A stretch of DNA of 64,000 nt from a virus. Taxonomy: Duplodnaviria; Caudoviricetes. Numbering within the stretch: position 1 is the stretch's first letter; each line of letters begins with the position of its first letter. Positions 1 through 61,968 of the stretch are shown piece by piece. The position numbers and the translations under genes were made by a program. Below the pieces are notes generated by a model. That model saw only the letters and a list, made by a program, of their open reading frames with translations, was not told the origin of the DNA and made no database searches. The DNA lies in the IMG/VR virus record IMGVR_UViG_3300050821_003608, positions 466 to 64,465 of that record; one strand, 5' to 3'.

Positions 1-2692
1 TGTACAGGTCATCTGGCGCGTCGTAGTGGAACTTGTTGAACATTGGAGTCCCGCCGTTGAAGGATTCCGGGATGTCCGTGCCGATGACAGTCCCGTAGGA
101 CTCAGCGACGCAAGTCACAGTATTGGAAAGTTTATTGACGTTCACGATATATACTGTGCCGCCAGATCCCGGCCAGCCAACTAGTTCTTGTCGCAGCGTG
201 TCGTAGGTCAACGCTGAGCCATTAATGGCGATAGGCGAGCAGGAAGCGTCGAGTGATGGATGGTTGATAGAGGTGCATCCGGTAGAGATGTCGCACCAGA
301 AGGAGCCGCCGGGGTTCGGGGCGTCGTTTGGCGTAGACATAACCACGACAGCTTGGTTGAGTGTGTCCACACCGAGAGAGCCGTAGAGCGTAGCGTTGGT
401 CGAGAGCGAGGCTGTCTTCGTCCAAGTGTTAGCCACGTCGTCGAACTTCGAGATAGAGGCGACGCCGTTTCCGTTGAAGCTCTCCCATACCCAGATGAGG
501 CCAGACGAAAGGTCGGGAGCCGCCGAAGACATAACGATGTTCTCGCTCGACGGCAAGCCAGCAGGAGTAATTTGTGCCCATGACGCCGAGCAGGTGGGAG
601 CACAAGACTGCGAGATAGTAGTGGTGTCGAGCGACCACATGTTAAACGATGCACAGCCATCGCCGAGCGTGTCCCCAGTGATACGCGCCCAGATGTAGAG
701 ACGATTTAGCCGGGGAGACTTGATGTTGAAGCCGTAGGTATGCCCGGACCCCGGAGCGGAAGCGTCGGGGGAGCCACAGGTCGCAGCAAAGGTCGTCGAG
801 GGGTTGTTCAGTCGCAGTGCATTGTTGGTACGCGGGTTCAGTTCATAGCACTCGTTGCCCAGGTAGTCGCTGTGCCCACCGTTCGAGCAACCGAGCATAC
901 GCGGACCATTCGGGCCGGCAGAATCGAAGGCCAGGCTCGTCCAGGCATTCCATGCTCCCGCGCACTTGCCGCCAAAGGAGTAGGAAGTCCCTCCGAAGTT
1001 ATTCGGAGGACATTGATCGCGTCCGTTTCCTTGTACGGTCGTAGCAGTCGAGAACTTCGTCCACCCGAGCGTGGTCGAGGACGACACAGTGCCATTGTCT
1101 TGCAGATAGAGAATAGCGTCCCGCGCCGATCCCCAAGGTGGAGTGAAGGACTGCGTGGACGAGCCACCTTGGATGGTTGTTCCAGCCGTGTAGGCGCCAT
1201 TCGCGGGGTCGAGCCATTGCACGAGGATGTTGTGGGCGGATTGGTTGGATAGGTTGACGGTGAAGGCTCCACCAGAGGGAGCGTAGACGATAAACTCAAA
1301 GCTAGCATTGGCATTGTTGGCTAGACAGTAGGTCGTGCTACATAGAGAAGTCGAGGCGGACATCGCCGCGAGGTTGAGCACGCGGGAGTTGACGAGATTG
1401 GCTGCGTAGCCGAAGTTGTCGCGGAAGTTGTCGTACCGTGTGTCCACTCCGCCCGTACAGACTCCGTTGACGGGAGTGATGCAGTTGTTGCGGTTCGTCC
1501 AGTTGGGATTGGAAGCGCCCGCGAAGATAGCGTATGGGTCCATGAACATGACCGACGCACCGCGAGTGACGTTCTCCCATAGGAAGTTGCGGTTCTGCTG
1601 GTTGGTTTCTTGCCACAGACCGAAGTAGGAATGGTCGGAGTCGTTCAGGATAGTCTTACAGGCGGGAGCGCCCGTTCCGCAGCCGCTTACCTGGACGACG
1701 TGATAGTTGCCAATGGAGGTCGCACCCAAGGGAGCGACCATGTTAGCGGCAGAGTTGTAGAGCGATGGGTCGTTCGGGGAGTTCACGTTCAGGGTCGGGT
1801 ATAGGACTTGGTGCTGGAAGGGTTTCGTAGCCTCGTAGGACTGGATGACACTGATAACGTGGTTCTGCCAGAAGGTCGATCCCGTCGGCGCTTCTTCGCT
1901 AATTTCCCAAATGACGTTAGGGACATCGTTGAGCGTGTCGATTATCTTGCGGATGTAGGCGTCTTGGAAGGTGTTGATGGAATTGAGCGAGGTCATGGTC
2001 ATCGAGCCTTCGCCCTGCGCACCCGAGGTGTAGCCATCATCAACGGAGTTGATATTGTTGACTCCAGTGAAAGGGAAGCCATCTCCGGTAGGGGAGGAGT
2101 TCCCGCAACGATTTACAGTGAGGCCGAGTCCGTCGAATAGCTCGACGACGGCGTATAGACCAGAGCCGTAGAGTTGCAGCGCACGAGCCCGAGTACGATC
2201 AAAGTAGGATTGGTTGAAGGTCGATAGATCCCACTTGTTGCCGCCGTCGGATGCTCCGGTCGTGGCCGAGCGCGCCCATGGGAAGCCGGAGTCGGCGATA
2301 CGCCACGTTCCGCCCGCCCCCCAGTTGCAGAATTGTGGAATGTCCTTGTGCCACAAGATTGTAGCGTTGTGGTTGTGCGACTTGAGGAAGGCGATATAGT
2401 TGGTGAAGTTGAACGCTGCGGGCGAGGCGGAGGTGTCTTGGTCTTGCAGGTCGTCCCATGTTTGCGAACCGAACAGAAGGATAGGGTGAGTTTGCGAAGG
2501 GACTGCTAGGAAGTTCGAGGCGGGCTGTGCGACTCCCGCCGAGGACAGTGCTCCTAGCGCACAGGTGGGATTACAGACCGCATTGACGGAAGCCTTTCCC
2601 GAGATGGTCGCGCCACCGGAGGCCGAGACGCTCTGTGCCCGAAGCAGGACAGGCCACAGTAAAAGTAGGAGCAGGAGAAGTCGTCGCGGCAT
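1..2692 (-). CDS. Signal-peptide-bearing glycoside hydrolase-like protein (clan GH-A-like barrel, beta-sandwich, propeller-like region); 3' end outside window
   Basis: Missing from the ORF track because it runs off the window. Manual translation from ATG 2692, which overlaps the upstream TGA: MPRRLLLLLLLLWPVLLRAQS...FPWARS..DGGNKWDLSTFNQSYFDR...DTLNDVPNVIWEISEEA...VQWLDPANG. The frame stays open to position 1. Confidence 0.75.
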   Translation of the reverse strand, partial: MPRRLLLLLLLLWPVLLRAQSVSASGGATISGKASVNAVCNPTCALGALSSAGVAQPASNFLAVPSQTHPILLFGSQTWDDLQDQDTSASPAAFNFTNYIAFLKSHNHNATILWHKDIPQFCNWGAGGTWRIADSGFPWARSATTGASDGGNKWDLSTFNQSYFDRTRARALQLYGSGLYAVVELFDGLGLTVNRCGNSSPTGDGFPFTGVNNINSVDDGYTSGAQGEGSMTMTSLNSINTFQDAYIRKIIDTLNDVPNVIWEISEEAPTGSTFWQNHVISVIQSYEATKPFQHQVLYPTLNVNSPNDPSLYNSAANMVAPLGATSIGNYHVVQVSGCGTGAPACKTILNDSDHSYFGLWQETNQQNRNFLWENVTRGASVMFMDPYAIFAGASNPNWTNRNNCITPVNGVCTGGVDTRYDNFRDNFGYAANLVNSRVLNLAAMSASTSLCSTTYCLANNANASFEFIVYAPSGGAFTVNLSNQSAHNILVQWLDPANGAYTAGTTIQGGSSTQSFTPPWGSARDAILYLQDNGTVSSSTTLGWTKFSTATTVQGNGRDQCPPNNFGGTSYSFGGKCAGAWNAWTSLAFDSAGPNGPRMLGCSNGGHSDYLGNECYELNPRTNNALRLNNPSTTFAATCGSPDASAPGSGHTYGFNIKSPRLNRLYIWARITGDTLGDGCASFNMWSLDTTTISQSCAPTCSASWAQITPAGLPSSENIVMSSAAPDLSSGLIWVWESFNGNGVASISKFDDVANTWTKTASLSTNATLYGSLGVDTLNQAVVVMSTPNDAPNPGGSFWCDISTGCTSINHPSLDASCSPIAINGSALTYDTLRQELVGWPGSGGTVYIVNVNKLSNTVTCVAESYGTVIGTDIPESFNGGTPMFNKFHYDAPDDLY

Positions 2693-3411
2693 CAGAGCAC
2701 CACCGGAGGTTTCGACGGAGTGGCAGCACCGCCAGACGGCTTGACCGCGAAAACCACCGCGCCCCATGAGTCTGAGCCGCTGAGAGTCATCGGGCCGTTC
2801 GTTGCAGTCGCAGTGGTTTGTACCCAGTCCTCCATTCCGAGCTTGGACGGAGCCGCTGGGACTACCTCAAACATGGTGAAGTTGGTCCCGGCCGTGAAAG
2901 TCTCGGCTGCGTCCACCGATCCAGCCGCGATAATGAGTTCGTTGTTTGCTGCTGGGGTGATGGAATTGGACTGCGGGGACGCACTGGAGCCGGTGTTGGA
3001 GTTAGACGAGTCGATTGGTGAGGTAGTTGCGACGCCACTGTACTCAGCGATAGCGATACGGAGGGTGGTTGAGAGCGTGGTCGATACTGTGAGAGTGTCC
3101 GCCCCTCCTGCCGTGTTGTGCGCCTCGAAGCACTGGAGAAGTTCGCCGTTGCCCGTACCAGTTACTTGCACCGAGACGACAGAGTTCCAAGTGTTCGACT
3201 GTCCATCGGTGATGGATAGAGTAGTAGATTTATTCCCGGCACGCACGCAGGCGGACAGAAAGTTAGTCGCCGCAGTATTGCTGGAGAACGAAATGGTCGT
3301 AGAAGAGACGTTGGAGGTTTGATTGGTGTTGGCGTGCTGGACGCGGGAGATAGCCCCCTGCGCGGGGAGAGCACAGAGGAACAGGATTAAGGTGAGTAGG
3401 AGTCGTCGCAT
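2692..3411 (-). CDS. Signal-peptide-bearing Ser/Thr-rich beta-strand protein, putative fibre-associated
   Basis: Likely start MRRLLLTLILFLCALPAQG-AISRVQ at 3411, overlapping the upstream stop (TGATG). Two repeated beta-rich units. Confidence 0.7.
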   Translation of the reverse strand: MRRLLLTLILFLCALPAQGAISRVQHANTNQTSNVSSTTISFSSNTAATNFLSACVRAGNKSTTLSITDGQSNTWNSVVSVQVTGTGNGELLQCFEAHNTAGGADTLTVSTTLSTTLRIAIAEYSGVATTSPIDSSNSNTGSSASPQSNSITPAANNELIIAAGSVDAAETFTAGTNFTMFEVVPAAPSKLGMEDWVQTTATATNGPMTLSGSDSWGAVVFAVKPSGGAATPSKPPVVL

Positions 3412-6400
3412 CAGTTCGCCTGCACCGTCAAGAGTCTCGGGATGGTGATGCCCAAGCCATAGATTTCCACGTTCGTCGCGGTGTCGGTCGTGCGAGAGAG
3501 TTGAAGACGCAGGACGCCGCCAGCGATGCAGCCCGTCATGGTGATGGTCGAGAGCGTGGCATCCCATTGGCGGTTTGCGTTACCGTTCAGAGTGATGGTT
3601 GAAAGAGATTGCGCGGTGTTGAAGGCCACGTCGTCGGTGGTCGAGCCGTCTCCCTTAGAGCAAGCCGTCGCGATCTGCATGATGACCGTGTGGCCGTTGG
3701 TCGCGTCGGTCGAGGCCAGACGGAGGCGGACGTTTGGATTGGTCGCGGTGTCCCAATCGGCAGGGAGGCCGATAGACATTTGCGCCGTGTCGGACGCGCC
3801 CCATGTGAGGAAGCCCTCTTTGTTGTTCGTTCCGGCGCGGCAGGTCGCAGCGGGAGTCGCAGCGGTAGACCAGCCCGAGGCCGCAACAGCGTTCACACAG
3901 TCCGCCGCCGGGAAGTAGTGGTAGTCCGGGAAGTCGATATAGGCGGGAGGAGAGCCAGCCGTCAATATCTGCTTGCTAGTACCTGCCGCGAGAGATGCAG
4001 CGCCTTGACCACCACCTGACCCAATCACGACTTGGTTGTTGGTCAGAGCCGAGCCCGAAGTCACACAGGTAGCACAAGCAAGAGTTAGATTGGACGTAAG
4101 GGCTGCGCCACCAGTGATGGGGGAGGTCGTATTGATAGTCAGCGTAGTCGAAGTTGCGACAATGGCACCTGTACCGATCGCAGCCAAGCTGCCCGTCGTG
4201 TCCATCTGGACGCCGTTTGCGGTCCCTACGGCAGTAGCCTTGAACGGTTTCAGTGTCGAGGACGCAGCGGTGTGCAAGAACATCAACGCGCCAGTCGAGG
4301 TGGACGCACCGTCCACGATCTCCCAAGCGTTGCGTGTCCCGGTCATCACGCCATGCGTGAAGAGAGAATTGTTCGTGCCCATCGAGAGCGAGAGGTCCGC
4401 GGCGGGATTTGAGAGCGACGACCACACGGTCGAGGCCGAGCCGGCACAGGAGCCCCATGAGGGGGTGCCACCCGATACGCTGATGGCACAGAGCGTACCC
4501 GCGCCGCCCGTGGCGGTCGAGACTAGCTTCGTGCCGTCGGAATAGATGAAGCCGTTCGTGTTGGCGAGGCCAGAGGATGCGTTCGTACCACCGTTCCCAA
4601 ATGGAAGAGTTCCGGTCACGTCCGCAGTGAGGGACACAGCGGACCACGAGGGCGTCGTGCCTGAGTGTAGGAGTTGCGTCGCGGTTCCCGCAGCTAGACG
4701 CGTCCCGGATCCGCTTGTGCCGCCGTAGAGAATGTCTCCGGCCATGGTCAGGGGGGATAGATTGTTGAAGCAGGCAAGGGCAGTCGATGCACCGCAGCCG
4801 CCGTTGGTCACAGGGAGCGTCCCAGTCACGCCGCCGTTGGTGTTGTTGGAGTTGAGATTGATGGGCAGGATGTCCGCCGCGACTATCAAGCGGAAGGTCG
4901 GAGCCGCAGCTGCGCCGGAGGTGGGACCGACGAGGAAGGAGTTGGCGTTCTGCGAGCCGAACATGCCCCCAGTGATATTGCTGCACGTTGGAGATGTGTT
5001 GTCGTTGGCCGCAGTGACGACAGTGGTCGGGGAGCAGCCTCCTACGCCCGAGGCCGGGAGGAAGGACAACGTGGCTACGCTGGAGACGTTGCTGGCCCGC
5101 AGGAAGCCTGTCGCCGCGGAACCAGGGAGGACTATGGCATAGGACGACGGGATGGATGTAGGAGAGTAGATTCGCGCCGAGTTCGTCCCCAGTGGAGGAG
5201 CGGAAGTCTGCGGCAGGTCGATGTAGGATGCGCCAGAACCGATGCCAGTGAAGGAAGTCCCGGTTACGTTGCCACTCACGTCTACCTTATAGACTGTGGT
5301 GCCGGAGGTATCCTTGTAGTTTTCAAAGTTCCCAGTCGGGCCGGAGTTGGTAAATCGCTGCTGGGTGAGAGTGTCAACTCCGTTCGATGGCTGAAGGATA
5401 GTGTGGCCGGACGTGGCCGAATAGGTCCAGTTCGCCGAGCCGGTGACGGCAGAGGAAGTGTTCCAGAAGGTTCCTTGTCCGGCAGAGCCAGTGCCGCCGA
5501 CCGCGCCGGCTGCGCAGGAGTTCCACGTCGCCGTGGAACCGTTCGATACGAGACAGAGGCCGTTCGTGCCGATGCCGAGGCGTCCGGCCGTGTTTACACC
5601 CGTTCCGAGGATTAGGTCGCCGGTGGAAGTGACGGGCGAGAGTGCGTTGAACGCAGCGGAGGCGGTGACTTGGCCCGTGCCGCCATTGGCGATAGCGGTC
5701 GTACCCGTCGTGTCCGTTCCAAGATTGACAGCAGCATAGGTCGGCGCTCCGGCGGCGTTGCCATGGAGCACGGTCGTCGTCGTGCCAGCGGGACCGATTT
5801 GCGTCGCCTGTCCGCCCGCGCCGAGGACGATTTGATTGTTGGTCAGAGCGGCGGCGTTGGTCGTACAGGTCGGACAAGTGAGGTTCCCTGTCGTGGCCGA
5901 GAGCACAAGCGGCGCCGACGCGCCATCGGCGAACGTGCCCGAAGTGTTCGGGAGGGTGAGAGTCGGCGTCCCCGCAATCGCCTGTGGAGTGATAGTCACT
6001 GTGCCCGAAGTAGCACCAGCCATAGCTAATTGACCAGTAGTCGATGCCGCGACGCCGATAGTCAGAGTAGGCGAAACCCACGTAAGGTTCGCCGAGCCGC
6101 CAAACGACCCAGAGTTATTGAACTGGACTTGGGTGTTCGCGCCGCCAGGCGTGCCCGTGCCAGCGGAGCAGGCCGACCATGAGAGTTGCAGCGAGCCGTT
6201 TGAGGACAGACATTGCGTGCCGGAGGAGTCCGTCGTGGGGAACAGCCACACGAGATTGACGGTGGACGCTCCGCCAGTGAAGCCTGCGTAGTTCGTGCCG
6301 TTGGTGCTGAACCAGCGGATCGCCTTCCCGTTGGCGATAGACTGGTGATCGGTCCACGTCTGGGCGAGATTCAGTTCGGCCAGTGTGCCTGTGTTGTTCG

Positions 6401-8009
6401 GCAACGTGGCTGTACGCGTTGCGCTGAAGCTACCACTCAGAGTCGCAGTGTTCCCTCCACCAGTGAGGTTGAACGCGGGAGACGTGAATCCCGTGCTGGA
6501 TGTGACTTGCCCACCGAACAAGCTGGGCGTAGTGCCGTCTGTGGTAATCGCGAAGGCATGAGCACTGGCAGTCTGCGCGTCGATTTGGAGGGCAGAGGTT
6601 CGCGTCGTGCCAAGGTTCCTCTGGTCCTGCACCTGAAGACCATAAAGGTTGGTAGCCGTTTCGGTGGACGAGACTCCGCCAACTCGATTAAACGGAGAAG
6701 TGACTTGGAGGCCCACGCCCAACAACGCGCTGGAAGAAGGCTTGGTGAGGCTAACTTGTGCCTGCATCGCAATTAGCTCTTGTCCGGCGTTGGTGTCTAG
6801 AGGGTCGTCGCTGGCCACTGCCAGTACGCCAGTCGCGATGGGATTACCGGAGCCTAGCACGTCAACGAGAGACTGGATGCCTTGGTTTCCCAAGCCTGGA
6901 TTGGTGCTGACCGCGGTCACGCTCAGGATGGAACCACCCGATGCTGCGCCTAAGCTGGCCAAGGCCACGCTGTTCGTGAAACTCACTCCGCTGTCAGTGG
7001 ATGAGAAGGAGAGAGCAGAATTGTTGCTCGTCGTAGACTGGAACAGAGTATCGCAGGTAGCTGTGCTGCCGAATCCGCATCCCGCCACGGCTGGAACAAA
7101 TCCAGTAGCGGTCAGGTTCAGGTTAGGCAGCGTGAAGGTACGGTTCGCCGTCAGAGTCGCCGTGGACAAGGTGGACGCGAACCCGCTGTTGGACAGCTTT
7201 AAGCCACTTGAGGGGATGGTGATAGCCGTGCCGTTGTCGACGGCGATAGATGCGGCGAGAGCACCGGAGCCGTTGTTCTTCTGGAGAGAGTTGGCCGGTG
7301 GCGCAGGGTTGCCTCCCCCACCCGAGCCCGAGTTCGAGATGAGATTCCAGTTGGTCCCGTCGAACTTCCATGTGAGCGCGTTGGTCGCAAGCGCAAGCTG
7401 ATTGAACGAGAAGCCTAGAGGGAGGATGAAGTTCGAGGGGAAGGCGAAGGGTCGAGAGCCGATCGCGTCTTCGATGAGCGTGAGCGAGAGGATGTTGCCG
7501 TTCGCTGGCGTGCCTGTGATAGTCGAGGAGGTCACGTTCCCGGTGAGGGTCATCGTGTACGACACGTTGTTGGTGGCGTTGAACGCAGGGGTGGACGAGA
7601 AGGACAGGTTGGTGTTGGGCAAGGCGGCTTGCTGGTTCGCGGGGTCAGCGATGGAGATGTCGGAGTAGGTGACGGGGGAGGGGAAGCCCGCGCCAGAGAG
7701 CTGCACGTCGTAACGTCCGTTCGCGGCGTAGAACAGCCAGCGGCCGTTCGAGGTAGCAGTGAAGGGGTTGGACAGGGGCGTGCCAGAATTGTCCGAGAAG
7801 ATGGTCGCCAGTCCCCCGCCATGGATGAAAATGGTCACGGTGCAAGCTGGGAAGGATTGCTGGACCTGCGTGGTCGAGGTCAGGCCCGAGGTCACGACGG
7901 GCTGCGCGCCGGACTCACACCAGCCTTGGATGTTCTGGTTCGCCTTCGCGAGAACGGGCGACAGCAGGAATAAAGTGAGAGGTAGAAGCAGTCGGAGTAG
8001 TTTTCTCAT
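3411..8009 (-). CDS. Long tail fibre-like protein (~1532 aa) with N-terminal signal peptide
   Basis: Start MRKLLRLLLPLTLFLLSPVLAKA at 8009 (ATGA overlap with upstream stop). Tailspike anchor-like segment ATIFSDNSGTPLSNPFTATSNGRWLFYAANGRYDV. Fibre repeats LPVTNGG/LPFGNGGT/IANGGTG and PGGANTQVQFNNSGSFGG. Confidence 0.8.
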   Translation of the reverse strand: MRKLLRLLLPLTLFLLSPVLAKANQNIQGWCESGAQPVVTSGLTSTTQVQQSFPACTVTIFIHGGGLATIFSDNSGTPLSNPFTATSNGRWLFYAANGRYDVQLSGAGFPSPVTYSDISIADPANQQAALPNTNLSFSSTPAFNATNNVSYTMTLTGNVTSSTITGTPANGNILSLTLIEDAIGSRPFAFPSNFILPLGFSFNQLALATNALTWKFDGTNWNLISNSGSGGGGNPAPPANSLQKNNGSGALAASIAVDNGTAITIPSSGLKLSNSGFASTLSTATLTANRTFTLPNLNLTATGFVPAVAGCGFGSTATCDTLFQSTTSNNSALSFSSTDSGVSFTNSVALASLGAASGGSILSVTAVSTNPGLGNQGIQSLVDVLGSGNPIATGVLAVASDDPLDTNAGQELIAMQAQVSLTKPSSSALLGVGLQVTSPFNRVGGVSSTETATNLYGLQVQDQRNLGTTRTSALQIDAQTASAHAFAITTDGTTPSLFGGQVTSSTGFTSPAFNLTGGGNTATLSGSFSATRTATLPNNTGTLAELNLAQTWTDHQSIANGKAIRWFSTNGTNYAGFTGGASTVNLVWLFPTTDSSGTQCLSSNGSLQLSWSACSAGTGTPGGANTQVQFNNSGSFGGSANLTWVSPTLTIGVAASTTGQLAMAGATSGTVTITPQAIAGTPTLTLPNTSGTFADGASAPLVLSATTGNLTCPTCTTNAAALTNNQIVLGAGGQATQIGPAGTTTTVLHGNAAGAPTYAAVNLGTDTTGTTAIANGGTGQVTASAAFNALSPVTSTGDLILGTGVNTAGRLGIGTNGLCLVSNGSTATWNSCAAGAVGGTGSAGQGTFWNTSSAVTGSANWTYSATSGHTILQPSNGVDTLTQQRFTNSGPTGNFENYKDTSGTTVYKVDVSGNVTGTSFTGIGSGASYIDLPQTSAPPLGTNSARIYSPTSIPSSYAIVLPGSAATGFLRASNVSSVATLSFLPASGVGGCSPTTVVTAANDNTSPTCSNITGGMFGSQNANSFLVGPTSGAAAAPTFRLIVAADILPINLNSNNTNGGVTGTLPVTNGGCGASTALACFNNLSPLTMAGDILYGGTSGSGTRLAAGTATQLLHSGTTPSWSAVSLTADVTGTLPFGNGGTNASSGLANTNGFIYSDGTKLVSTATGGAGTLCAISVSGGTPSWGSCAGSASTVWSSLSNPAADLSLSMGTNNSLFTHGVMTGTRNAWEIVDGASTSTGALMFLHTAASSTLKPFKATAVGTANGVQMDTTGSLAAIGTGAIVATSTTLTINTTSPITGGAALTSNLTLACATCVTSGSALTNNQVVIGSGGGQGAASLAAGTSKQILTAGSPPAYIDFPDYHYFPAADCVNAVAASGWSTAATPAATCRAGTNNKEGFLTWGASDTAQMSIGLPADWDTATNPNVRLRLASTDATNGHTVIMQIATACSKGDGSTTDDVAFNTAQSLSTITLNGNANRQWDATLSTITMTGCIAGGVLRLQLSRTTDTATNVEIYGLGITIPRLLTVQAN

Positions 8010-9001
8010 TGCGTCCCTATAGTGCTGGCCACGCCAGCGATGGTGTTGTAGAACGGATAGCCGAGGCCGCCGAATACGTTGTCGCGCACAGCAAACCAGT
8101 TGTCCACGAACTCGCGGTCCTGTTTGCGATAGAGCGAGAGGAGTTTGCCATAGCGCGTGGAGGTTTCGCCCATCAGGAACTTCCAGTCCGGGCCAGTCGA
8201 GCGCGGAGAGATGTCGCGGTTGGCCTCGGCCCACTCGTAAGCGTAGAACTTTGCTTTGGCGAGGAGAAGGTCTTCGTCGAGCGGTTGAGGGAGAGCATCG
8301 GATGGATTGATGAGGTCCGCTCCCATGCGAAGGCCATAGCACTGATAGGTGAATGGCGAGACAGGCTGGCCCCACAGTTCGTAGAGAGGGTAGCCGAGAG
8401 TGGCCGAACCGACGCGCGTGTCGCGGTACGCAGCGACGACACGAGTCGGGAACTGATATATAAGCCGCTGAGGGTCCTCGCGGTCGAGTTCCGAGCGTGT
8501 CTTGGTGAGGTCGAGGTTCAGGAACAGGAGAGGATTGCGCACGGACAGCCAAGTGCGGTGGTCCTTAAACGGAGGAGCGTAGTAGAGTTGGTAGACTTGG
8601 TAGGCCGCTCCGGCAGCGGTGGGGTCGCCGAAGATGCGGTCGAGAGTGACGATGCCGTTCGCCGCGAAACCGGGGTCTAGAGTTTGGATATTGTAGATGC
8701 CGCCCGAGCCGATGCGGAACTGGCGGAGCGTGAGCGGTGAGTAGATGTTGGCGATGACGGAAGCGAGGAGGGCCGCAATCGCGGTCGCGTCGAAAGTGAT
8801 GGTCGCGAGTCCCTGCGTCGCGGTCACGGTCCCGAGGGTACACACAGGAGGGGTAATCCACGACGACTCGAAGAGGTTGAACGACCACAGATTCGACTCG
8901 CGGATGTCCCTCCAAGAGCGGTTGATGAGTGTCTTGGTGAAGGCGAATGGCAGCTTGGGGACGGAACCGCGAAGTTCCGCCATCATGTCCTGGAGGGCCA
9001 C
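8006..9001 (-). CDS. Putative head-tail adaptor protein
   Basis: Lies downstream of the capsid genes. Helical N-terminus (LINRSWRDI..W.F), central beta insertion, C-terminal LPQPLDEDLLL helices. Confidence 0.55.
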   Translation of the reverse strand: MALQDMMAELRGSVPKLPFAFTKTLINRSWRDIRESNLWSFNLFESSWITPPVCTLGTVTATQGLATITFDATAIAALLASVIANIYSPLTLRQFRIGSGGIYNIQTLDPGFAANGIVTLDRIFGDPTAAGAAYQVYQLYYAPPFKDHRTWLSVRNPLLFLNLDLTKTRSELDREDPQRLIYQFPTRVVAAYRDTRVGSATLGYPLYELWGQPVSPFTYQCYGLRMGADLINPSDALPQPLDEDLLLAKAKFYAYEWAEANRDISPRSTGPDWKFLMGETSTRYGKLLSLYRKQDREFVDNWFAVRDNVFGGLGYPFYNTIAGVASTIGTQ

Positions 9002-9705: not shown

Positions 9706-10371
9706 TTAGATTCGGCTGAAGGGGTTGCGCTGGAGCAGCACAGCGGTAATCGTTGAGAGGACCGGGATGACGATGGCAGTGCCAGCGAAGGCTCCCGCGT
9801 AGGAGAACGGGATGGTCGCAGTGACCACGTTCACGCCTACGTCGAAGGTCGAGGCGACAGCGGCGGAGATTTTGACGCTGACAGGGTTGCCGACAGCAGC
9901 CGCAGTGATGGCCGAGTCGAACAGGCAGGAGGCCACGCCGCCAATTTGAATCCAGCCGAAGTTGCCCTTGGTGATGGCGTTGATGAATACGCCGGCGAAG
10001 AGAGTCGGGATGGCGGTGGTGGGCTGCGCGTCGGAGGTTACTTGGTACAGGTTCGACGCCGCGGGTGGAAGGTCGGCGGCACGGAAGAACGCAGCGGTGC
10101 CGCGAGCGGGCGCGGCGGCGGCCGAGGACAGAGTGCCGACGTACATGTAGATGCCGCCGAAGAGGGTGCCGGTGTTCACCGTGTCCGACAGCGCGAGCGC
10201 AGTAGCGTCGTCGAGGCAGATACGATCGCCCGCGATGGTCTGGCTGACCTGCGGGGACGGCGCGCCAGCCGGGACCGAGACGATGACCCCGCCCGCAGCG
10301 GCGTCGTTGACCGTGTTGAGGAACTTCGCGGTCTGGAACTCGGCTTGTTTCGTTAGCATTCCTGATGCCAT
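9706..10371 (-). CDS. Putative capsid decoration/cement protein
   Basis: Directly after the major capsid gene; AAGGAG RBS; motif ITKGNFGWIQIGG typical of decoration proteins. Confidence 0.65.
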   Translation of the reverse strand: MASGMLTKQAEFQTAKFLNTVNDAAAGGVIVSVPAGAPSPQVSQTIAGDRICLDDATALALSDTVNTGTLFGGIYMYVGTLSSAAAAPARGTAAFFRAADLPPAASNLYQVTSDAQPTTAIPTLFAGVFINAITKGNFGWIQIGGVASCLFDSAITAAAVGNPVSVKISAAVASTFDVGVNVVTATIPFSYAGAFAGTAIVIPVLSTITAVLLQRNPFSRI

Positions 10372-10383
10372 GGTCGATTCTCC

Positions 10384-11526
10384 TTAGAAGCCCGAGCCGT
10401 AGATTTGCGAGTTGTCGCGGGGCGACGTGGTGTAAGCGTTCAGCGCGGCCTTGAGGAACATGACCACGAGGTCCGGGTTGTTGGCCGAGCGGATCGGCGG
10501 GGTGAAGTTGAAGTTGTACTCGGGGTCCACGGACGGTCGGAGCTTCCAGCCCTTCGCGCGCAGCCAGAAGAACGGCTCGCCGGGGTTGATGGTCACAGCG
10601 GAGGGAAGGTTCGAGATTTTGCGCTGCGCGGCCGTTAGAGTCGCGGAGGTGAAGGTCGAGGGGAGGAGCGTCGTGGTTTGCGATAGACCAGACGGGAGGA
10701 TGGTCCCGTACTTGGTCGAGGGCGCCAGCTTGTCCTCGAAGATCATGGCGTCGAGTAGTTTCAGGCCGGACATGCCGATGGATACGTCGGTCTGAGTCTC
10801 GAAGCGTTGTTTGGGTTCCTGCCGTTCGAGCAGGTAGGCGTAGAGAGCCTTGTTGCACAGGCCGATGTCCGGGCGCTGCACGCAGTTGAGATAGGCTTCG
10901 ACCAAGATTTTGTAGGTGATTTGCCCGGTGTTCCCGGCTTGGTCGCCCGCCCAGATGGGCACGGAGTTGAGCACGTTGCCGACCACGCCGTTGCGGAGCT
11001 GCCCGCCGTAGGTAGTGAAGACGTTGCCGTCCCAAGAGTTGTTGATGCCGTCGTTCAGGGCCTCGCTGATGCCGTTGAGAAAGAGGATACGGTTGGATCC
11101 AGAGATGTTCTGGCCATGACGGTAGAAGTCGATGGCGAGGTCGGTGTTGAGCGCCTGGACCGCGTTGGTCATGTAGGCGTCAACCTCTTTGATTTTGACG
11201 GCCGGACCCGCCGCCTGGATGACGTTGGTGCGGAACAGGTTCAGAGGCACGTCTTCCTTGTACGCCTTGGGCACGAAGGCAGTCGAAGCGATGATTTGCT
11301 TCTGTTGCACCTGCACGTCCGAGCCCGGAGCGTAGGCGCCACCGTTCACGCGGTCGTACTGGAACGGAGTCTGCATGAGCGTCCCGCCGAGGAAGTCGTC
11401 GAGGGCACCGCTGACGCGGAGCTTGCGCAGCCATGCGGAGTCGACGAAGAAACAATCGTAGAGCACGTCGTCGCGGAGGTCAGCCAACGTGGTTGAGCTG
11501 AGTTGGTCAAATACTGGATCTGCCAT
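10384..11526 (-). CDS. Major capsid protein (HK97 fold)
   Basis: 380 aa, strong codon bias, RBS CAGGAG, follows the scaffold. Sequence pattern (D.LYD...WL.KL..GG....PF.Y; LNGISEAL..G..YGG.R) resembles podovirus-type capsids. Confidence 0.85.
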   Translation of the reverse strand: MADPVFDQLSSTTLADLRDDVLYDCFFVDSAWLRKLRVSGALDDFLGGTLMQTPFQYDRVNGGAYAPGSDVQVQQKQIIASTAFVPKAYKEDVPLNLFRTNVIQAAGPAVKIKEVDAYMTNAVQALNTDLAIDFYRHGQNISGSNRILFLNGISEALNDGINNSWDGNVFTTYGGQLRNGVVGNVLNSVPIWAGDQAGNTGQITYKILVEAYLNCVQRPDIGLCNKALYAYLLERQEPKQRFETQTDVSIGMSGLKLLDAMIFEDKLAPSTKYGTILPSGLSQTTTLLPSTFTSATLTAAQRKISNLPSAVTINPGEPFFWLRAKGWKLRPSVDPEYNFNFTPPIRSANNPDLVVMFLKAALNAYTTSPRDNSQIYGSGF

Positions 11527-11561
11527 CGCTGTTCTCCTGTCCTACCTCGAAAACGAAATCG

Positions 11562-12413
11562 TTAGTTCGCTCGCCCACCCGACTCGCGGGAGTAGTGCCG
11601 CTGGATCGCGCGCTGCACCCGGTCGTTCGAGCCGGACTCGCCGTCGAGCCCCACTTCCCACGGCTGCTTGTCGCGGCCGGTTTCCTTGCGGAAGGTGAAT
11701 GGGGAGGACGAGGGCTGAAGCGGACGGGTCTCGGGATTGCCATACTGCGAGGCCATCTCGGCGCGCACACGGTCGGCCTCTTCCTTGCGGATTTTGTTGT
11801 CGCGCTCGTCCTGGATGCGCTTGGCAGCGGAGTCGCGGGCTTCCTGGACCTTGAACTCGTCCATCCAGAGCTGCTTCACGGGGATCTTGCGCTCGACTGC
11901 GCGGGAATAGAGGGACTCGAAGTCGAGCGGACGGTCGGGGAAGAGTCGCGCGTGCTCGTTCAGGATAGAAGCGGTGACTGCGATGGCCTGACCTTCCGAT
12001 CGTGCGATGGCGTTGATTTCCTCGCGCGTGTAATACTTCGAGGCGTCCAGAGAGGGAGTCGGAGGAGGGGTGTTCTGTGGGGGATTGTTCGGAGGATTGT
12101 CGAAGTTGTAGCCGAGGTCCTTGGCCACGTCCACCATCCCGCGTTCGTGGGCGGTACGCAAGGCCGCGACCGCACGAGCCTCGTTCGCCTTGGCGGCGAT
12201 GATTTCGTTGTCAAGACGGGCGCGGCGTTCCTTCTCGGTCTCGTAATAGTTGTTCACCTGGTCTTGGAACGTAGCCGCGGTTTCCTTGAACTTGTTGAAG
12301 TCGGTCTCGACCGTCTGCATCCTCTCGAACGCCTTGCGTCCGACGGAAGTGTCGAGGATTTTGATGTCCTCGTCCGATGCGCCCTGAGACTTCAGCCACT
12401 CTGCGTAAGTCAT
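11562..12413 (-). CDS. Capsid scaffolding protein
   Basis: Charged coiled-coil protein immediately upstream of the capsid gene; AAGGAG RBS. Confidence 0.65.
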   Translation of the reverse strand: MTYAEWLKSQGASDEDIKILDTSVGRKAFERMQTVETDFNKFKETAATFQDQVNNYYETEKERRARLDNEIIAAKANEARAVAALRTAHERGMVDVAKDLGYNFDNPPNNPPQNTPPPTPSLDASKYYTREEINAIARSEGQAIAVTASILNEHARLFPDRPLDFESLYSRAVERKIPVKQLWMDEFKVQEARDSAAKRIQDERDNKIRKEEADRVRAEMASQYGNPETRPLQPSSSPFTFRKETGRDKQPWEVGLDGESGSNDRVQRAIQRHYSRESGGRAN

Positions 12414-15861: not shown

Positions 15862-16314
15862 TTAGGTTTTCACATTGATGCGGTCAGGATGAAACTCTTC
15901 TGAATCGACAGGCCGGGAGCCGGAGTCGTTCTCCCGCGCCCAGAGGTAGGCGGTGCGCTCCAGCCAGCGTTGCTGGTAGACGGCTCGCTTGTCGTTGCGA
16001 AGCTGGAGGTAGAGCCGGATGAACTCGCGCTCGAACTCGGAGGTCGCCGAAGAGGTCATGCGCGCGTAGAGTCGGTCGCGCACCTCGTCCATTCGCGCCC
16101 CGAACGTCGCTGCATCGCGTTGGACTTCGCGTTCCCACTCGCGCTTCTCTTGCGCGACGAGAGTAGCCTGGAGTCGGTCCACGGCGGCGAGAGTGTCGGC
16201 GTACTCGCGGATAGCGCCCTCGGGGGTAGGGAAGTCCGAGTACGGGGCGAGAGTTAAATGGTCGTCCGGGTGGCGGAAGTAGATGACGGGTTCGATGCAG
16301 CCGGGCTTTCTCAT
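15862..16314 (-). CDS. Hypothetical protein
   Basis: 150 aa, ATGA overlap with the terminase stop. Confidence 0.65.
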   Translation of the reverse strand: MRKPGCIEPVIYFRHPDDHLTLAPYSDFPTPEGAIREYADTLAAVDRLQATLVAQEKREWEREVQRDAATFGARMDEVRDRLYARMTSSATSEFEREFIRLYLQLRNDKRAVYQQRWLERTAYLWARENDSGSRPVDSEEFHPDRINVKT

Positions 16315-19250
16315 CGCGACAACCTTTCTAGCATCCCCTCGTTGTAAAGTAAATCTTCAATTGACGACGTGGTGCGGTGCATCGGATGGTCCGGGTTGAC
16401 GAGGAGGCCGGACGGGGACGGGCCGAGGTTCAAGGGCGGGAGCGCGGAGGATTCGACGAAGCGTTTCTTCGAGCGATCCGCGAGTTGATCCATGTCGTGT
16501 GGGCAGAAGATGGCCATGGCGGAGGCGAAGATACGGTCGTCGTGGGAGTCGTCGGCGTGCTCCAGCTTCTCCTTGCCCGAGGAGGTGACGTGCACCTCGA
16601 ACTCCTTCATCTCGTTGATGAGCCAGGGACTATTTATCTCCGCCCAGCCGTTCTGCGCCGCATGCACGAAGTTGCCGGTCAGCATCGCGCGGGTGTAGGA
16701 GAAGGTGAACCAGCCTCGCTTGCCGCCGGTTTTTTTCTGGCGGATGATGCGCTTAACGGAAGAGTCGTAGCGGGCCATCTTGTGAAAGTTGGTGTAGCCC
16801 ATGCGCGCGAGCTGGAGCTGGCAGGTGTCGCCGACGGCCGCGACCTGCTCGATGCTGAGATAGGGCTCCTTCCAGCGGGTCTGGCCGATGGCCATGTGCG
16901 TTTTGTAGTAGGCGGAGATCGCGAGGACGAAGGCGAAGGCTTCGACGTGGTTCACGCGGGACGAGGAGAACTCGGCGACTTGGATGTCGGGGTCGCCCTT
17001 CTTGCCACAGGTCCATACCGAGATGACTGTGGAGTCTTGTCCCTTGCCCTCGGAAGTGTCGACACCGATAGAGTAGCTGACGCCGGGCTCGGGATGATGG
17101 AAGATGAGCAGGATACCATCCACGTCCTCGGCCTGGTCCTCGCGGAGCGATTCGTCGCGGAGCGGGATGAACTCCCAGCGGAAGGTCTCCTGCTTATTGG
17201 AAGTGAAGCGGACGGGGATGCGCTCGCGAGAGTAGTCGTAGAACTCGGCAGCCACCTCGTGAGATTCCTCGATAGATTGTCCAGTGATTGTATAGCACTC
17301 GAAAGTCTTCTTCCTTCGCACCCTAATCTGGTCGATGGTGTCATGTCCGAATACTGACTCTGAAGAACGCTGGAGAGCCTCTTCGTCGTCGCCAGCCATC
17401 TCTTGTAGGAATACACCTTCGATGTTCTTGGCCTTGGCTTGTTCGTGCTCGACCTCCCAGAACCACTGCTGCGCACGGGGCATCTTGTAGTCCACGCCGA
17501 GGTGCCTCGACAATAACTTATCGGAATGTACGTAGAGTTCCGCCTTGGCCACATGTGTCCGGGTGTTGCGGTTCGGGCGCCAGTCGGAAGGGATGGGCCG
17601 CATCCGCAACCATGTGGAGGTCGGGTAGATGTCGGTGCCACAGAACCAAGGAAGGAAGAGTGGGCAGAGACGCGAGCGACGATGGACCCAGTTGGCCTTG
17701 GCGTGGCGGTAGGTGTCTGGCCACCAGCCTTTGTCTCCCTCGCCCGTCGATTCGAGGATGCCGAAGACGGACGGGGATGCGTGGACCGCTTTGAAGAGAG
17801 AGGCTTCGATCTGATTCACGGGGTCGGTGAAGGATGCACATTCAGAGAGATGATAGATGGTCGGAGTCGTGCCGCGCGCGATGCCAGAAGTTTGCGCGCC
17901 GTGTTGGAAGCTGACCCCTGATGCGGTGTGGCCGAAGACTAGCATCCCGCGATCGGACTCGACGCGCCGGGTCCACGACGGACGGAGCCAGATGGGCATC
18001 ATGTCGTAGGCCAGGAACAGCATGTTGGCCATGAGGGAGGTCTTGGTCTGGTCCGCGGAACCGATGACCGCGTTGACGCCGTGGGCGAAGATGATGCGGA
18101 GAGCGATGAGGAGTTCGACGAGCGTGGACATGCCGAGCTGCCGCGCCTTGAGAATCATTATCTCGATAGAGGCCCGCATCTCTTCAAGGTCGCAGATGAT
18201 GTCGAACAGGAGACGCTGCGGGATGCGGAAGCGGAATCGTTGGATGATGTTCTCTTCGTTTTTGATAAAGCAGTTCTTGCTCGCGTAACCCCACGCCACA
18301 TAATTCCCCGTCTCGGTTTGCATGGAAACTACTTCACCCTCGCCATCTGGTTCCACTGAGACAATCGAATCCTTATCTCCCTTCAAGGTAGAATGCTGAC
18401 TGAAGATATAACGCTCCAAACTCTCAAAGCGTATGGGCCGACACCAAGCCAGAAATCTTGCCATTTCTGCGGCTCCACCGTTTATGGATATAACTTTTCC
18501 ATTCTTCATCACTCCCGCATGGAAGCCCAAAACACGTAGAGTTTCCGCAATATGAGCATGAACTTTAGGGTTATGTATCTTATCTTGTGCTATATAATGG
18601 CGACTACCTTCTCCATCGTAGAGTCCCCCCAACCATGCTGCTCGCTGTGGATGAGATGGCTCGTTGGAATAAACATTCACTAAGCGACGAAGATTCCACC
18701 CCACACGCGCACGAATCCATGGCCTCTTTGATCTATCGTAATTCCCAGAAGACCAGAGATGGTCAGGGGTGCAGCGAATCACTCGACCCGAAGCTAAAGT
18801 AACTCTTACAATCGGAGCAATGCGCCTAGAAATAGCTAAAACCTTAGACCGTTTCCAACTTTCCCTAAGTGTACCCCTCCATGCTCCTTGACTAGAGCGA
18901 AGAACGCGTTCCCACCCCATGACAATATCTCCGACTTGCACCTCTCCGATTGGCTTGAATGTGAAGTCTCCCATCCAAATAGGAGCTTCGGGAGGATTAC
19001 AGTAGCGGGTCAGCGCGTAGGCCGCGTCGCACATGCACAGAACTTGTTCGTTGAGCATCCATTGTTGGTTGGAAGGAGAGAGGTTCTGGGTCGAGGCGGG
19101 GCGACCGGTGTCGTCGAGGAGGTATTTCCCTTCGCGATGGAGACGGGACTCGAAGGCGTCGACTTCCTCGACGGATTTGTAATCGACAGTGAAGCCAAAC
19201 TCGTCGCGGGCGAGCTGGAGGCGTTCTTCGACGATGGAAGCTGCGTACAC
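16311..19250 (-). CDS. terL: Terminase large subunit with intein
   Basis: Walker A LKARQLGMST, Walker B YHLSE, coupling motif LESTG, nuclease motifs IGVDTSEG and HDDRIFA. Confidence 0.92.
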   Translation of the reverse strand: MYAASIVEERLQLARDEFGFTVDYKSVEEVDAFESRLHREGKYLLDDTGRPASTQNLSPSNQQWMLNEQVLCMCDAAYALTRYCNPPEAPIWMGDFTFKPIGEVQVGDIVMGWERVLRSSQGAWRGTLRESWKRSKVLAISRRIAPIVRVTLASGRVIRCTPDHLWSSGNYDRSKRPWIRARVGWNLRRLVNVYSNEPSHPQRAAWLGGLYDGEGSRHYIAQDKIHNPKVHAHIAETLRVLGFHAGVMKNGKVISINGGAAEMARFLAWCRPIRFESLERYIFSQHSTLKGDKDSIVSVEPDGEGEVVSMQTETGNYVAWGYASKNCFIKNEENIIQRFRFRIPQRLLFDIICDLEEMRASIEIMILKARQLGMSTLVELLIALRIIFAHGVNAVIGSADQTKTSLMANMLFLAYDMMPIWLRPSWTRRVESDRGMLVFGHTASGVSFQHGAQTSGIARGTTPTIYHLSECASFTDPVNQIEASLFKAVHASPSVFGILESTGEGDKGWWPDTYRHAKANWVHRRSRLCPLFLPWFCGTDIYPTSTWLRMRPIPSDWRPNRNTRTHVAKAELYVHSDKLLSRHLGVDYKMPRAQQWFWEVEHEQAKAKNIEGVFLQEMAGDDEEALQRSSESVFGHDTIDQIRVRRKKTFECYTITGQSIEESHEVAAEFYDYSRERIPVRFTSNKQETFRWEFIPLRDESLREDQAEDVDGILLIFHHPEPGVSYSIGVDTSEGKGQDSTVISVWTCGKKGDPDIQVAEFSSSRVNHVEAFAFVLAISAYYKTHMAIGQTRWKEPYLSIEQVAAVGDTCQLQLARMGYTNFHKMARYDSSVKRIIRQKKTGGKRGWFTFSYTRAMLTGNFVHAAQNGWAEINSPWLINEMKEFEVHVTSSGKEKLEHADDSHDDRIFASAMAIFCPHDMDQLADRSKKRFVESSALPPLNLGPSPSGLLVNPDHPMHRTTSSIEDLLYNEGMLERLSR
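18273..19001 (-). mobile_element. Intein (243 aa) with LAGLIDADG-like endonuclease region
   Basis: Starts C-NPPEAPI, block B IRCTPDHLW, WLGGLYDGEG, ends TETGNYVAWGYASKN followed by +1 Cys. Visibly lower GC than the flanks. Confidence 0.9.
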
Positions 19251-21723: not shown

Positions 21724-22140
21724 TCAGCGATGGACGACCGCGACGTGCGACATGTCGACGTGGGTCGTCTTGTCCTTGCGCCATTCCACGATGCCGTGGC
21801 CTAGCTGGAGGCAGCTTCCACCGTAGCTGATGGCTGCGCCTGACTTGCCGCCAATCTTCTCCGAGATGGGAATCATCAGGAAGTTCGCGCCGGTGTAGAC
21901 GCCGAAGATGGCCCACGACTCGCCATACTTGCCGTCACAACGTTCGACTCCGCCTGTGCGGCAGTGGTGCAGGCCAGCGGCGCCGACGCCGGCGGACACG
22001 CCCGCGTAGAGCAGCTTGGTCGCGACGGGATGACGGAGGAACCAGTCGAGCGGATTCGCCAAGGTCGTGGTCGATAGGCCCATCAGGACTAGAGTCGCTA
22101 TCGTCACTCTAATTGTCGTTGCCACGTTCGGCCTCCTCAT
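21724..22140 (-). CDS. Exported/membrane protein
   Basis: Signal-like N-terminus, hydrophobic helices, one Cys pair. Confidence 0.6.
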   Translation of the reverse strand: MRRPNVATTIRVTIATLVLMGLSTTTLANPLDWFLRHPVATKLLYAGVSAGVGAAGLHHCRTGGVERCDGKYGESWAIFGVYTGANFLMIPISEKIGGKSGAAISYGGSCLQLGHGIVEWRKDKTTHVDMSHVAVVHR

Positions 22141-28127: not shown

Positions 28128-28249
28128 CACTCGCGGAAGCCTATTGGACAGGCATGATAGTCGGGGGGTGTGTGATGGCCACGCTCGGGTGGTTGGGGTG
28201 GTGGCTTGGGCAGCGACCGTGGCGACAGCCACAGAGGAGGGGATTATGA
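28124..28249 (+). CDS. Small membrane protein
   Basis: MTLAEAYWTGMIVGG...; ATGA-coupled on both sides. Confidence 0.5.
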   Translation: MTLAEAYWTGMIVGGCVMATLGWLGWWLGQRPWRQPQRRGL

Positions 28250-52238: not shown

Positions 52239-52706
52239 CTACGGATAGACCCGGACGTTGTACGTTTTCGCTGGCGGAGTCAAAGCCACGAACGCGACTG
52301 CGTTCACCGTCACTGTGTTCGAGGCCGTGACTGTGCACTCAATGCTCATCCCTAGCGCGGAGATGTTCGTGCCGTCGCTCGGGGAAGCGATGCAAGGCTG
52401 TCCTGCGACTGCGCCCGTGACCGTCGCGGTGCCCGAAGCACTTCCTCCGAGTGCGAGCAGTCCTCCGCCGATGCTCCCGGTTGTTCCGGTCAGATAGGCG
52501 GCAGGAGAAGAAGTCCCGCAGGACATCGCTCCGCCCGACATGTTCAGGTGGTTCCCAGCGGAGTCGGGACAGTTCGGGATGGAAGGAGACGGAGAGTTGG
52601 CGGTTGATTGCGACTGGACCCGATGCCGAGTCGCGACGAGGTAGGAGCCGCTCAGGATCAAGCAGAGCAGCACCCACGCGAGGGGCTTCTTGAAGTCTCG
52701 CAACAT
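52239..52706 (-). CDS. Signal-peptide-bearing fibre-tip-like protein
   Basis: KKPLAWVLLCLILSGSYLVA; two Cys pairs; ATVTGAVAG..C..SP C-terminal domain. Confidence 0.65.
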   Translation of the reverse strand: MLRDFKKPLAWVLLCLILSGSYLVATRHRVQSQSTANSPSPSIPNCPDSAGNHLNMSGGAMSCGTSSPAAYLTGTTGSIGGGLLALGGSASGTATVTGAVAGQPCIASPSDGTNISALGMSIECTVTASNTVTVNAVAFVALTPPAKTYNVRVYP

Positions 52707-59387: not shown

Positions 59388-59579
59388 TCAAGCTGCGAGA
59401 ACTTCTCCGTTCGCTCCCAACGCTGAAACCTGAAACAGTTCTACGTTGTAGTCATTCCCGCCCGCACCGGACGAGCCTCCTTGCGAAGCGTTCATCACGT
59501 AACTATCCGCGTCCGCTTTCGTGGAGAACACCTGCTGGGCCTTGCCGTCGTATGTCACTACGTATACCATCGTCGCCAT
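59388..59579 (-). CDS. Small hypothetical protein
   Basis: CAGGAG RBS; QVFSTKADAD. Confidence 0.65.
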   Translation of the reverse strand: MATMVYVVTYDGKAQQVFSTKADADSYVMNASQGGSSGAGGNDYNVELFQVSALGANGEVLAA

Positions 59580-61317: not shown

Positions 61318-61968
61318 TCAACTAGACAATCGGGCGGGAGCGTTCCCGGCGCGAAAGGAGAGAAAATCGAACACTCGCGGGTTGAAGTTCATCGCCAAGC
61401 CGCTCGAATCAGTCACAGTGAATCCAAAAGTGGAAGATCCGCTCGAAGAAGGAACACCCGCGACGATGCCGGACGATGACAATGTAAGTCCGGGCGGCAA
61501 GGAGCCTAGACTGACTGTCCATTTGTAAGGTGGGACTCCCCCCGTTAGTCCAGTCACTGATTGTAGCGACACGGAATAGCTGAGTCCCACGGTTGCGTTT
61601 GGGAGCACGACCGGAGTTTGCATCGTTAGGGGGGTCACTGTACAAGTGAGAGTAATAGTCACGGTAGAGTTAACCGCTCCCGAGGTCATTGCTGCCGTGA
61701 GGTTGCCCGTCAACGCCTGCGTCGTCGCGCTGTAAGTCACTGGCAACGCCGTCGAGCCGACGGTCACGGTGCAGGAGGAGTTGAATCCGTTGGTCGAGCT
61801 GGCGAAGGAAATCGGAGCCGCGGTGTTTTGATAGAAGTGAGTCGGAGTGGGAGTGACCGTCCCAAGTGAAGCTGGAGCGACGATAGTGATAGTCGTCGTC
61901 TGTGTCTGCGATCGAGAGGGCACACAGAAGGCTAGGATTAGAAGCGGGGCCGATAGCAGTCGTTTCAT
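61318..61968 (-). CDS. Signal-peptide-bearing Ig-like protein (He_PIG-type domain)
   Basis: MKRLLSAPLLILAFCVPSRSQ; LPNATVG..Y...GGVPPYKW...GSLPPGLTL...G.P...FTVTDS. Confidence 0.8.
   Translation of the reverse strand: MKRLLSAPLLILAFCVPSRSQTQTTTITIVAPASLGTVTPTPTHFYQNTAAPISFASSTNGFNSSCTVTVGSTALPVTYSATTQALTGNLTAAMTSGAVNSTVTITLTCTVTPLTMQTPVVLPNATVGLSYSVSLQSVTGLTGGVPPYKWTVSLGSLPPGLTLSSSGIVAGVPSSSGSSTFGFTVTDSSGLAMNFNPRVFDFLSFRAGNAPARLSS

Follow-up and report, generated by a model that had tools for sequence, protein, structure and literature searches.

The DNA examined here is a 64,000-nucleotide stretch, hereafter the window, spanning bases 466–64465 of IMG/VR virus record IMGVR_UViG_3300050821_003608, a contig of 64,465 base pairs (bp) with a 97-bp terminal repeat. 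The end repeat implies a circular genome with a unit length of 64,368 bp, and the window is nearly the whole of this phage genome. Genes for terminase, portal and major head protein lie on the minus strand and those for a PolA-type polymerase and helicases on the plus strand; no tRNAs were found in the window. We focus on four consecutive minus-strand genes, termed A to D, whose products each begin with a leader resembling a signal peptide, and the first of which encodes a candidate tail fibre (Table 1). The block follows the head genes and a leaderless tail protein of 331 amino acids (aa), in the order A (1532 aa), B (239 aa), C (1689 aa) and D (216 aa). Downstream come small membrane-protein genes and then two leaderless tail-body genes for proteins of 648 and 1315 aa.

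An earlier note on this DNA had claimed that three leader genes are translationally coupled, and this is exactly what is found. A begins with an ATG that shares bases with the stop codon of the 331-aa gene (ATGA), and the starts of B and C each overlap the preceding stop (TGATG). The extent of the third gene has to be corrected, because the 897 aa visible at the left edge of the window are only part of C. Read across the 97-bp repeat, C comprises 1689 aa and ends at window position 61991, which makes D, beginning 22 bases after C, its immediate neighbour and gives four consecutive leader genes.

Table 1 Features of the leader block and its surroundings, with positions in the window and leader scores from our heuristic.
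Feature	Position	Strand	Leader score	Description
331-aa leaderless tail protein	8006..9001	-		Directly upstream of A; 34.9% identity to Tunturi_1 gp11
Gene A	3411..8009	-		Candidate tail fibre, 1532 aa; leader, putative docking N-domain, second beta domain, shaft, globular C-terminal domain
Leader of A	7941..8009	-	5.45	23 aa, MRKLLRLLLPLTLFLLSPVLAKA, mature start NQ
Mature N-domain of A	7620..7940	-		Residues 24-130; predicted beta-sandwich of docking type; conserved Cys31-Cys56 pair
Gene B	2692..3411	-	4.77	239 aa; leader MRRLLLTLILFLCALPAQG, mature start A, then predicted beta-sandwich
Gene C, first 897 aa	1..2692	-	5.97	Leader MPRRLLLLLLLLWPVLLRA, mature start Q; glycoside-hydrolase-like module and Collagen_bind_2, Cys-rich middle
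Gene C, last 669 aa	61991..64000	-		A short stretch between the two parts of C falls outside the window
Gene D	61318..61968	-	4.42	216 aa; leader MKRLLSAPLLILAFCVPSRS, mature start Q; Thr/Ser-rich
155-aa protein	52239..52706	-	4.58	N-terminal leader or signal anchor; in tail-body block; Big_7 below cut-off
Tail-body genes, 648 aa and 1315 aa	53023..58913	-		No leader; homologues of Tunturi_1 gp30 and gp31

Leaders were called with our own heuristic for n-, h- and c-regions, applied to all candidate starts of the 73 called open reading frames (ORFs) with a pass score of at least 4. All four genes of the block passed, in keeping with the signal-peptide starts that the earlier note had described for A, B and C. 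The remaining passes were the 155-aa protein, a lipobox protein at 45006–45635 (IVAG/C, score 4.43) and an internal start at 27678 (5.81), and the protein at 21724–22140 scored 3.62, below the cut-off. No leader was found by this heuristic at the starts of the capsid, portal, terminase, 648-aa and 1315-aa proteins. When seven positives were placed at random among 60 genes, 777 of 200,000 draws (0.4%) contained a run of at least four. A to D combine a basic n-region, an uncharged h-region and small residues at −3 and −1, the pattern of Sec-exported substrates of signal peptidase I. None has a Cys at +1 for signal peptidase II, and although B and C carry RR right after Met, a Tat-type n-region is missing. 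Lipoprotein and Tat signals on A to D were rejected since the sequences do not fit them, the lipobox being confined to the protein at 45006–45635. Two further leaders had been proposed, and they fared differently: that of D stands, adjoining C, while the 155-aa protein passes but may keep its N-terminus as an uncleaved anchor, because TRHRVQS comes after its h-region.

The closest cultured relatives of this phage are the podophages Tunturi 1 and 2 (PP887698 and PP885685; host Tunturiibacter psychrotolerans X5P2, likewise in culture), which also provide the best terminase match (Tunturiibacter phage Tunturi 1/2, 33% identity, E 7e-89) among 50,697 phage records. Both are described as cultured podoviruses of Acidobacteriota (PMC11924767), and the source phage is an uncultured short-tailed soil phage whose host probably belongs to that phylum. 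Tunturi 1 and 2 share its gene order of terminase, portal, capsid, 331-aa tail protein, leader block and tail-body genes, and their gp12 shares the N-domain of A at 45% identity; they differ in that core proteins are only 33–37% identical and distal parts of the block are unrelated. The 1315-aa tail protein is 36.7% identical to its Tunturi_1 counterpart over the full length. Closer still are six IMG/VR contigs (L004–L009), whose 331-aa proteins are 50–64% identical and whose capsid proteins reach 88%. Three more contigs (L012, L013 and L014) come from sister phages, and homologues of the capsid, 331-aa, 648-aa and 1315-aa proteins are encoded on them.

Whether homologues keep the signal peptide, a check proposed in the earlier note, can be answered in the affirmative for the homologues that could be read in the Tunturi and IMG/VR relatives checked. 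In Tunturi_1 the syntenic gp12, gp13, gp14, gp16 and gp17 all begin with leaders, and all readable homologues of A, B and C in L004, L005 and L006 retain theirs. Across these three contigs the leader sequences vary, and the mature start NQxxQGWCExGAxPVVTSGL is conserved. An HMMER search with the mature N-domain of A among 1.84 billion representatives returned 4048 clusters at E ≤ 1e-3. Among the best 150 of these 4048 clusters, 131 representatives pass the leader heuristic, and most of the 19 that fail start inside the leader, as truncated gene calls would. The N-domain begins at residue 19–33 in nearly all 150. When 135 homologues were put in one register by their first conserved Cys, leaders had a median length of 22, and Ala occupies position −1 in 107 of 135 homologues (Ala or Gly in 114 of 135) and position −3 in 82 of 135. 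This is the pattern predicted for a signal peptidase I substrate, and neither an uncleaved anchor nor a hydrophobic stretch arising by chance would look like this. The reading that the leaders are genuine, are conserved as a property rather than as a sequence and end in a putative AXA-type cleavage site is well supported, and so is the predicted export of A to D.

The mature proteins are rich in cysteines that fall into close pairs. A has 22 Cys in 11 consecutive pairs, with gaps of 3–44 residues within and 56–281 between pairs, and the whole 1689-aa C has 34 Cys in 17 such pairs. Of 200,000 random placements for each protein, 3 in the case of A and 78 in that of C matched the summed within-pair spacing, which bears out the pairing reported in the earlier note. 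The mature parts of B and D hold two Cys each, and the 155-aa protein has four after its hydrophobic stretch. Leaderless proteins have few by comparison: two in the 691 residues of the portal, none in proteins of 611 and 493 aa, three in the 648-aa and six in the 1315-aa protein. When pairs were aligned in 10 homologues, 24 of 28 were Cys-Cys, three had lost both residues and one had lost a single Cys. The Cys count is even in 98 of 116 leader-bearing family members, many of them probably incomplete, with 16 rows lacking a motif match left out. Formation of local disulfides by these pairs is a well supported prediction. As a plausibility check, each of the three Acidobacteriota-labelled bins containing family members has DsbA-family genes, and one of them has VKOR.

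Among distant homologues, absence of the leader goes together with absence of the first Cys pair. Leaderless N-domain homologues without this pair occur in Pseudomonas phage KT1 and at loci binned or labelled as Planctomycetaceae, Ramlibacter, Nitrosomonadales, Comamonas and Gemmatimonadales, with the N-domain at the extreme N-terminus. Leaderless acidobacterial forms lack one or both Cys, and the leaderless proteins of L012 and L013 are without the Cys31-Cys56 pair. The genomic setting of the leaderless forms is that of tail genes. In L013 the domain heads a gene between the 648-like and 1315-like tail genes, in L012 such a gene starts ~1 kb downstream of the 1315-like gene, and in KT1 it comes after a Phage-tail_3 (gpJ-like) gene. 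Leaderless homologues run on into Phage_fiber_rpt plus Phage_tail_C, or into Beta_helix. A separate arrangement is seen in L014 (binned Gemmatimonadales), where the N-domain stands alone as a leaderless 94-aa ORF (9950–10234) and a 629-aa ORF (10235–12124) follows directly, starting with the leader MRKLFLTSVALVALGVFLSA and a mature start Q; this pair could be either a split anchor with an exported body or a frameshift.

Structure prediction places the N-domain of A among phage fibre and tailspike domains. As proposed in the earlier note, the mature domain was modelled, here as a single domain from 96 alignment rows, and gave a beta-sandwich with a predicted local distance difference test (pLDDT) score of 93.3. 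An earlier model of A residues 24–300 from 18 rows had reached pLDDT 63.8 in the N-domain, with the N-terminus of CBA120 TSP4 as best PDB structure match (E 8.8e-3). The confident model matched 17 viral proteins in BFVD at E ≤ 1e-3 with template modelling (TM) scores of 0.55–0.77, and the named ones are pectate-lyase-type proteins, an exopolysaccharide depolymerase and a tailspike. Among 350,542 PDB chains its best four matches were short chains of the Pan3 and Pam1 tail complexes and of the XM1 neck (E 0.013–0.072, probability 0.99–1.00, TM up to 0.58); the likeness to Pam1 and Pan3 holds at these E values only. Identification of the segment after the leader as a fibre or tailspike N-terminal domain is thereby supported. 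The tailspike-like anchor proposed in the earlier note is upheld in this general sense. A likeness to the P22 tailspike was not upheld, and the better matches are the Pam1/Pan3-type chains. The P22 gp9 head-binding domain (2vnl) appeared only with the low-confidence model (E 0.84) and does not figure among the matches to the confident one.

The rest of A also has the build of a fibre. Its long shaft is rich in Ser, Thr, Gly and Asn, the protein contains three NGGTG-type fibre-like motifs, and beyond the N-domain its modules are shared with relatives in mosaic fashion, as is typical of receptor-binding proteins. A matched no Pfam or PHROG family, and PDB sequence searches with A and with the N-domain profile gave nothing usable. 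Only A carries the N-domain in this genome, and its position is that expected of a fibre gene: it follows the 331-aa tail protein, and its leaderless homologues lie in or beside the tail module. From its sequence, model and position, A looks like the docking fibre of this phage. A complex prediction of the 331-aa protein with the N-domain scored 0.00 in two runs whose controls were not folded, and so speaks neither for nor against their contact. The second domain of A (residues ~130–300, window 7110–7620, minus strand) was modelled at pLDDT 85–95 and is present in a subset of the family. A further match is to the C-terminal portion of Arthrobacter phage Jinkies gp36, a tail-region protein encoded three genes after baseplate J.

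B, C and D are of other types. For B an Atlas model has a predicted TM score of 0.86; its nearest clusters are of ~250 aa and 91–100% viral, and no Pfam or PHROG match was found. C is predicted to be a two-enzyme glycanase. Its glycoside-hydrolase-like part covers residues ~60–530, with Collagen_bind_2 at E 3.1e-9 (37 bits against a cut-off of 22) and DUF6298 at E 3.2e-5 (23.4 bits, below the cut-off of 28.1). This first module has at least 503 homologues at E ≤ 1e-5, most combining DUF6298 with Collagen_bind_2 and a few with DUF4038. The last 669 aa of C have no Pfam match; Atlas language-model features link them at 0.91–0.93 to PcRGLX-like (rhamnogalacturonan lyase type) clusters, in which that family is found on 15–29% of members. 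D has only weak PHROG matches, of unknown function, and reads by eye as an immunoglobulin-like (Ig-like) repeat.

Among other phages, leaders on proteins of the fibre region extend beyond podoviruses. In Tunturi 4, a siphovirus, they occur on the ‘tail protein’ gp113 and the ‘virion structural protein’ gp114, and not on gp111 or gp112. The main text of the Tunturi paper contains neither ‘signal peptide’ nor ‘mass spectrometry’ (PMC11924767). Cellulophaga phages phi18:3 and phi46:3, cultured podoviruses (Pachyviridae) from another host phylum, Bacteroidota, offer a further parallel. In phi18:3, gp085–gp087 are consecutive large late proteins starting with leaders, like A to D, and the GenBank record lists them as ‘structural protein’ with tandem mass spectrometry (MS/MS) proteomics annotation. 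In phi46:3, gp079–gp083 start with leaders, and gp079–gp082 are annotated as structural by similarity. The phi18:3 record indicates that leader-bearing proteins can be virion proteins elsewhere. However, gp085–gp087 have few Cys (0, 1 and 3), unlike A, and the Cellulophaga phages are not among the four records matched by A.

Leaderless fibres and spikes form the opposite case. Those of L012, L013 and KT1, together with the Pam1 (7EEQ) and Pan3 (9VYG) chains, resemble A in having a homologous or like-folded beta-sandwich at the very start, whereas the fibres of L012, L013 and KT1 have neither leader nor Cys pair in the domain and presumably fold in the cytoplasm. In Pseudomonas podophage A1002, density is missing for about the first 30 residues of fibre gp41, and its authors suggest proteolytic removal (PMC13730344). 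The nearest described analogue, by likeness of description, is cellular: the MAT fibres of Bdellovibrio bacteriovorus are reported to have a signal peptide together with a conserved ~130-aa domain and a fibre like those of phages (PMC10769870). As described, they imply that such fibres can be exported and can fold outside the cytoplasm, and they differ from A in being displayed on the predator surface.

Other phage proteins do use host Sec, among them pIII and pVIII of filamentous phages and the secreted or signal-arrest-release (SAR) endolysins. Filamentous phages, however, assemble at the membrane without a cytoplasmic capsid, and endolysins are not virion fibres. Our literature search, which did not extend to subscription papers or supplements, found no paper on fibres or tailspikes of tailed phages with Sec leaders. 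From the sequences assembled here, we infer that tail fibres and phage glycanases are probably routed through the host secretion pathway.

We hypothesize that A to D are late genes whose products would cross the inner membrane via host Sec, be cut by signal peptidase I at the AXA-type site and be locked by local disulfides in the periplasm. A would be the docking tail fibre, with the same type of N-terminal beta-sandwich as the leaderless fibres of sister phages. Heads and tails would be assembled in the cytoplasm, and in that case A could meet the particle only when lysis breaches the inner membrane, or later in the lysate. B and D, as putative small beta-sandwich or Ig-like proteins, and C, as a putative glycanase, might be carried by the fibre or might attack the polysaccharide coat of the host as free enzymes. 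Taken as a whole, with export, cleavage, periplasmic oxidation and docking of A at or after lysis, this explanation seems to us about evenly balanced between right and wrong.

Several observations weigh against it. The leader calls come from our own heuristic, and export, cleavage and disulfides are predictions. No endolysin, holin or spanin was found in the genome, which leaves the joining-at-lysis step without support; the Tunturi endolysin has no homologue here, and the small membrane proteins at 60541–60870 and 59503–60204 matched no family. A fibre released into the lysate would also be diluted. No PDB structure match of the N-domain reached E ≤ 1e-3 among the chains searched. In the sister phages L012 and L013 the fibres are leaderless, and the strand examined showed no further ORF of at least 150 aa with a leader, indicating that export is not required for the N-domain to fold, and a few leaderless-looking gene calls among the 150 closest homologues keep both Cys.

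Other such points speak for the alternative that A to D are exported yet never enter the particle, acting instead as free periplasmic or released lectins and glycanases that clear the coat for progeny escape, destroy receptors on the dying cell or debris, or block superinfection. Action on the host envelope or matrix is possible above all for C, which is of glycanase type and has no docking domain; its first module is 50–55% identical to 120 listed homologues, secreted-type enzymes of which some lie on contigs of up to 494 kb that are probably cellular. The fold of B similarly recurs as a domain in secreted multidomain proteins and enzymes. A leader-bearing protein with the N-domain and a pectate-lyase-like body (L010, 9923–12388) even sits on a 1.18-Mb contig of an acidobacterial metagenome-assembled genome, next to rpiA, a GT1 glycosyltransferase and methyltransferases and with no phage genes within 20 kb. 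Such proteins can, by this example, exist off a virion, and this one may be a domesticated or stranded tailspike. For A itself, free action fits less well. It has the sole copy in the genome of a domain that heads genes in or beside the core tail module in sister phages and heads tail fibres and tailspikes elsewhere, it joins a conserved N-domain to variable, mosaic distal parts as fibres do, and no other recognisable long fibre was seen in the phage. Leader-bearing proteins are, moreover, recorded in the virions of a Cellulophaga phage. We regard exclusion of all four proteins from the particle as unlikely, though deserving real weight.

Still less probable, in our view, is that the hydrophobic N-termini do not serve export at all, so that the proteins fold and assemble in the cytoplasm and the helix tethers them to a membrane, aids their assembly or acts on membranes at infection. 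This would agree with textbook tailed-phage assembly, which is wholly cytoplasmic, and with the leaderless sister-phage fibres that carry the same domain. Yet it would not account for an AXA-type site kept in fixed register before a conserved mature start while the leader sequence drifts freely, nor for Cys that are paired, are lost in pairs, exceed in density those of leaderless virion proteins and would be useless in a reducing cytoplasm. An artefact, with true starts downstream of the hydrophobic stretches or with stretches arising by chance, is largely refuted and very improbable: the starts of A, B and C overlap upstream stop codons, the leader is in frame in Tunturi and the IMG/VR relatives checked as well as in the 131 representatives, and the clustering of leaders is unlikely by chance. 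A further idea, that these genes are lysogenic-conversion morons, was dropped; no integrase was found among 10 early-region proteins scanned.

If the proposed Sec route with docking of A at or after lysis is correct, particles inside the cell would lack both fibres and infectivity, and assembly would be completed only by lysis. In a large group of soil phages the parts that bind the receptor would then mature in the periplasm, and disulfides could help fibres withstand acid soil. Such genes would be wrongly annotated by tools for which a leader speaks against a place in the virion, and laboratory production of these fibres and depolymerases would need periplasmic or oxidising conditions. A broader proposal, which we offer tentatively as conceivable and short of probable, is that particle building is divided between two compartments in tailed phages of Acidobacteriota and, judging from the cultured Cellulophaga phages, in those of Bacteroidota as well. 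The head and tail body would be cytoplasmic, the recognition gear would be exported by Sec, locked by disulfides and added at lysis, and infectivity would be acquired at or after lysis. The trait would follow host phylum rather than phage lineage, because leaders occur on fibre-region proteins of both a podovirus and a siphovirus while the sister phages are leaderless.

Elsewhere in the genome, several proteins drew no database match. The 331-aa protein has no Pfam, PHROG or PDB sequence match, the 648-aa, 1315-aa, 611-aa, 493-aa and 344-aa proteins have no PHROG and no Pfam match, and a PDB sequence search with the 1315-aa protein gave nothing usable. At the end of the plus-strand block, the 209-aa lipobox protein (45006–45635, plus strand; lipoprotein-type leader LIVAG/C) lies two genes before a DUF5675 protein (46098–46544, plus strand; E 1.8e-24). 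Both may be lysis-related, with no family saying so. The protein at 28144–28743 (plus strand) has a Sigma70_r2 domain (E 2.4e-7) and may be a late-gene sigma factor. The 979-aa terminase (16311–19250, minus strand) contains an insert of ~240 aa at residues ~85–323, and the terminases of L004, L005 and L009 match residues 1–84 and 324–979 only, that is, without it. With a LAGLIDADG-like motif (LGGLYDGEGS) and an end reading ASKN/C, this insert looks like an intein with a homing endonuclease.

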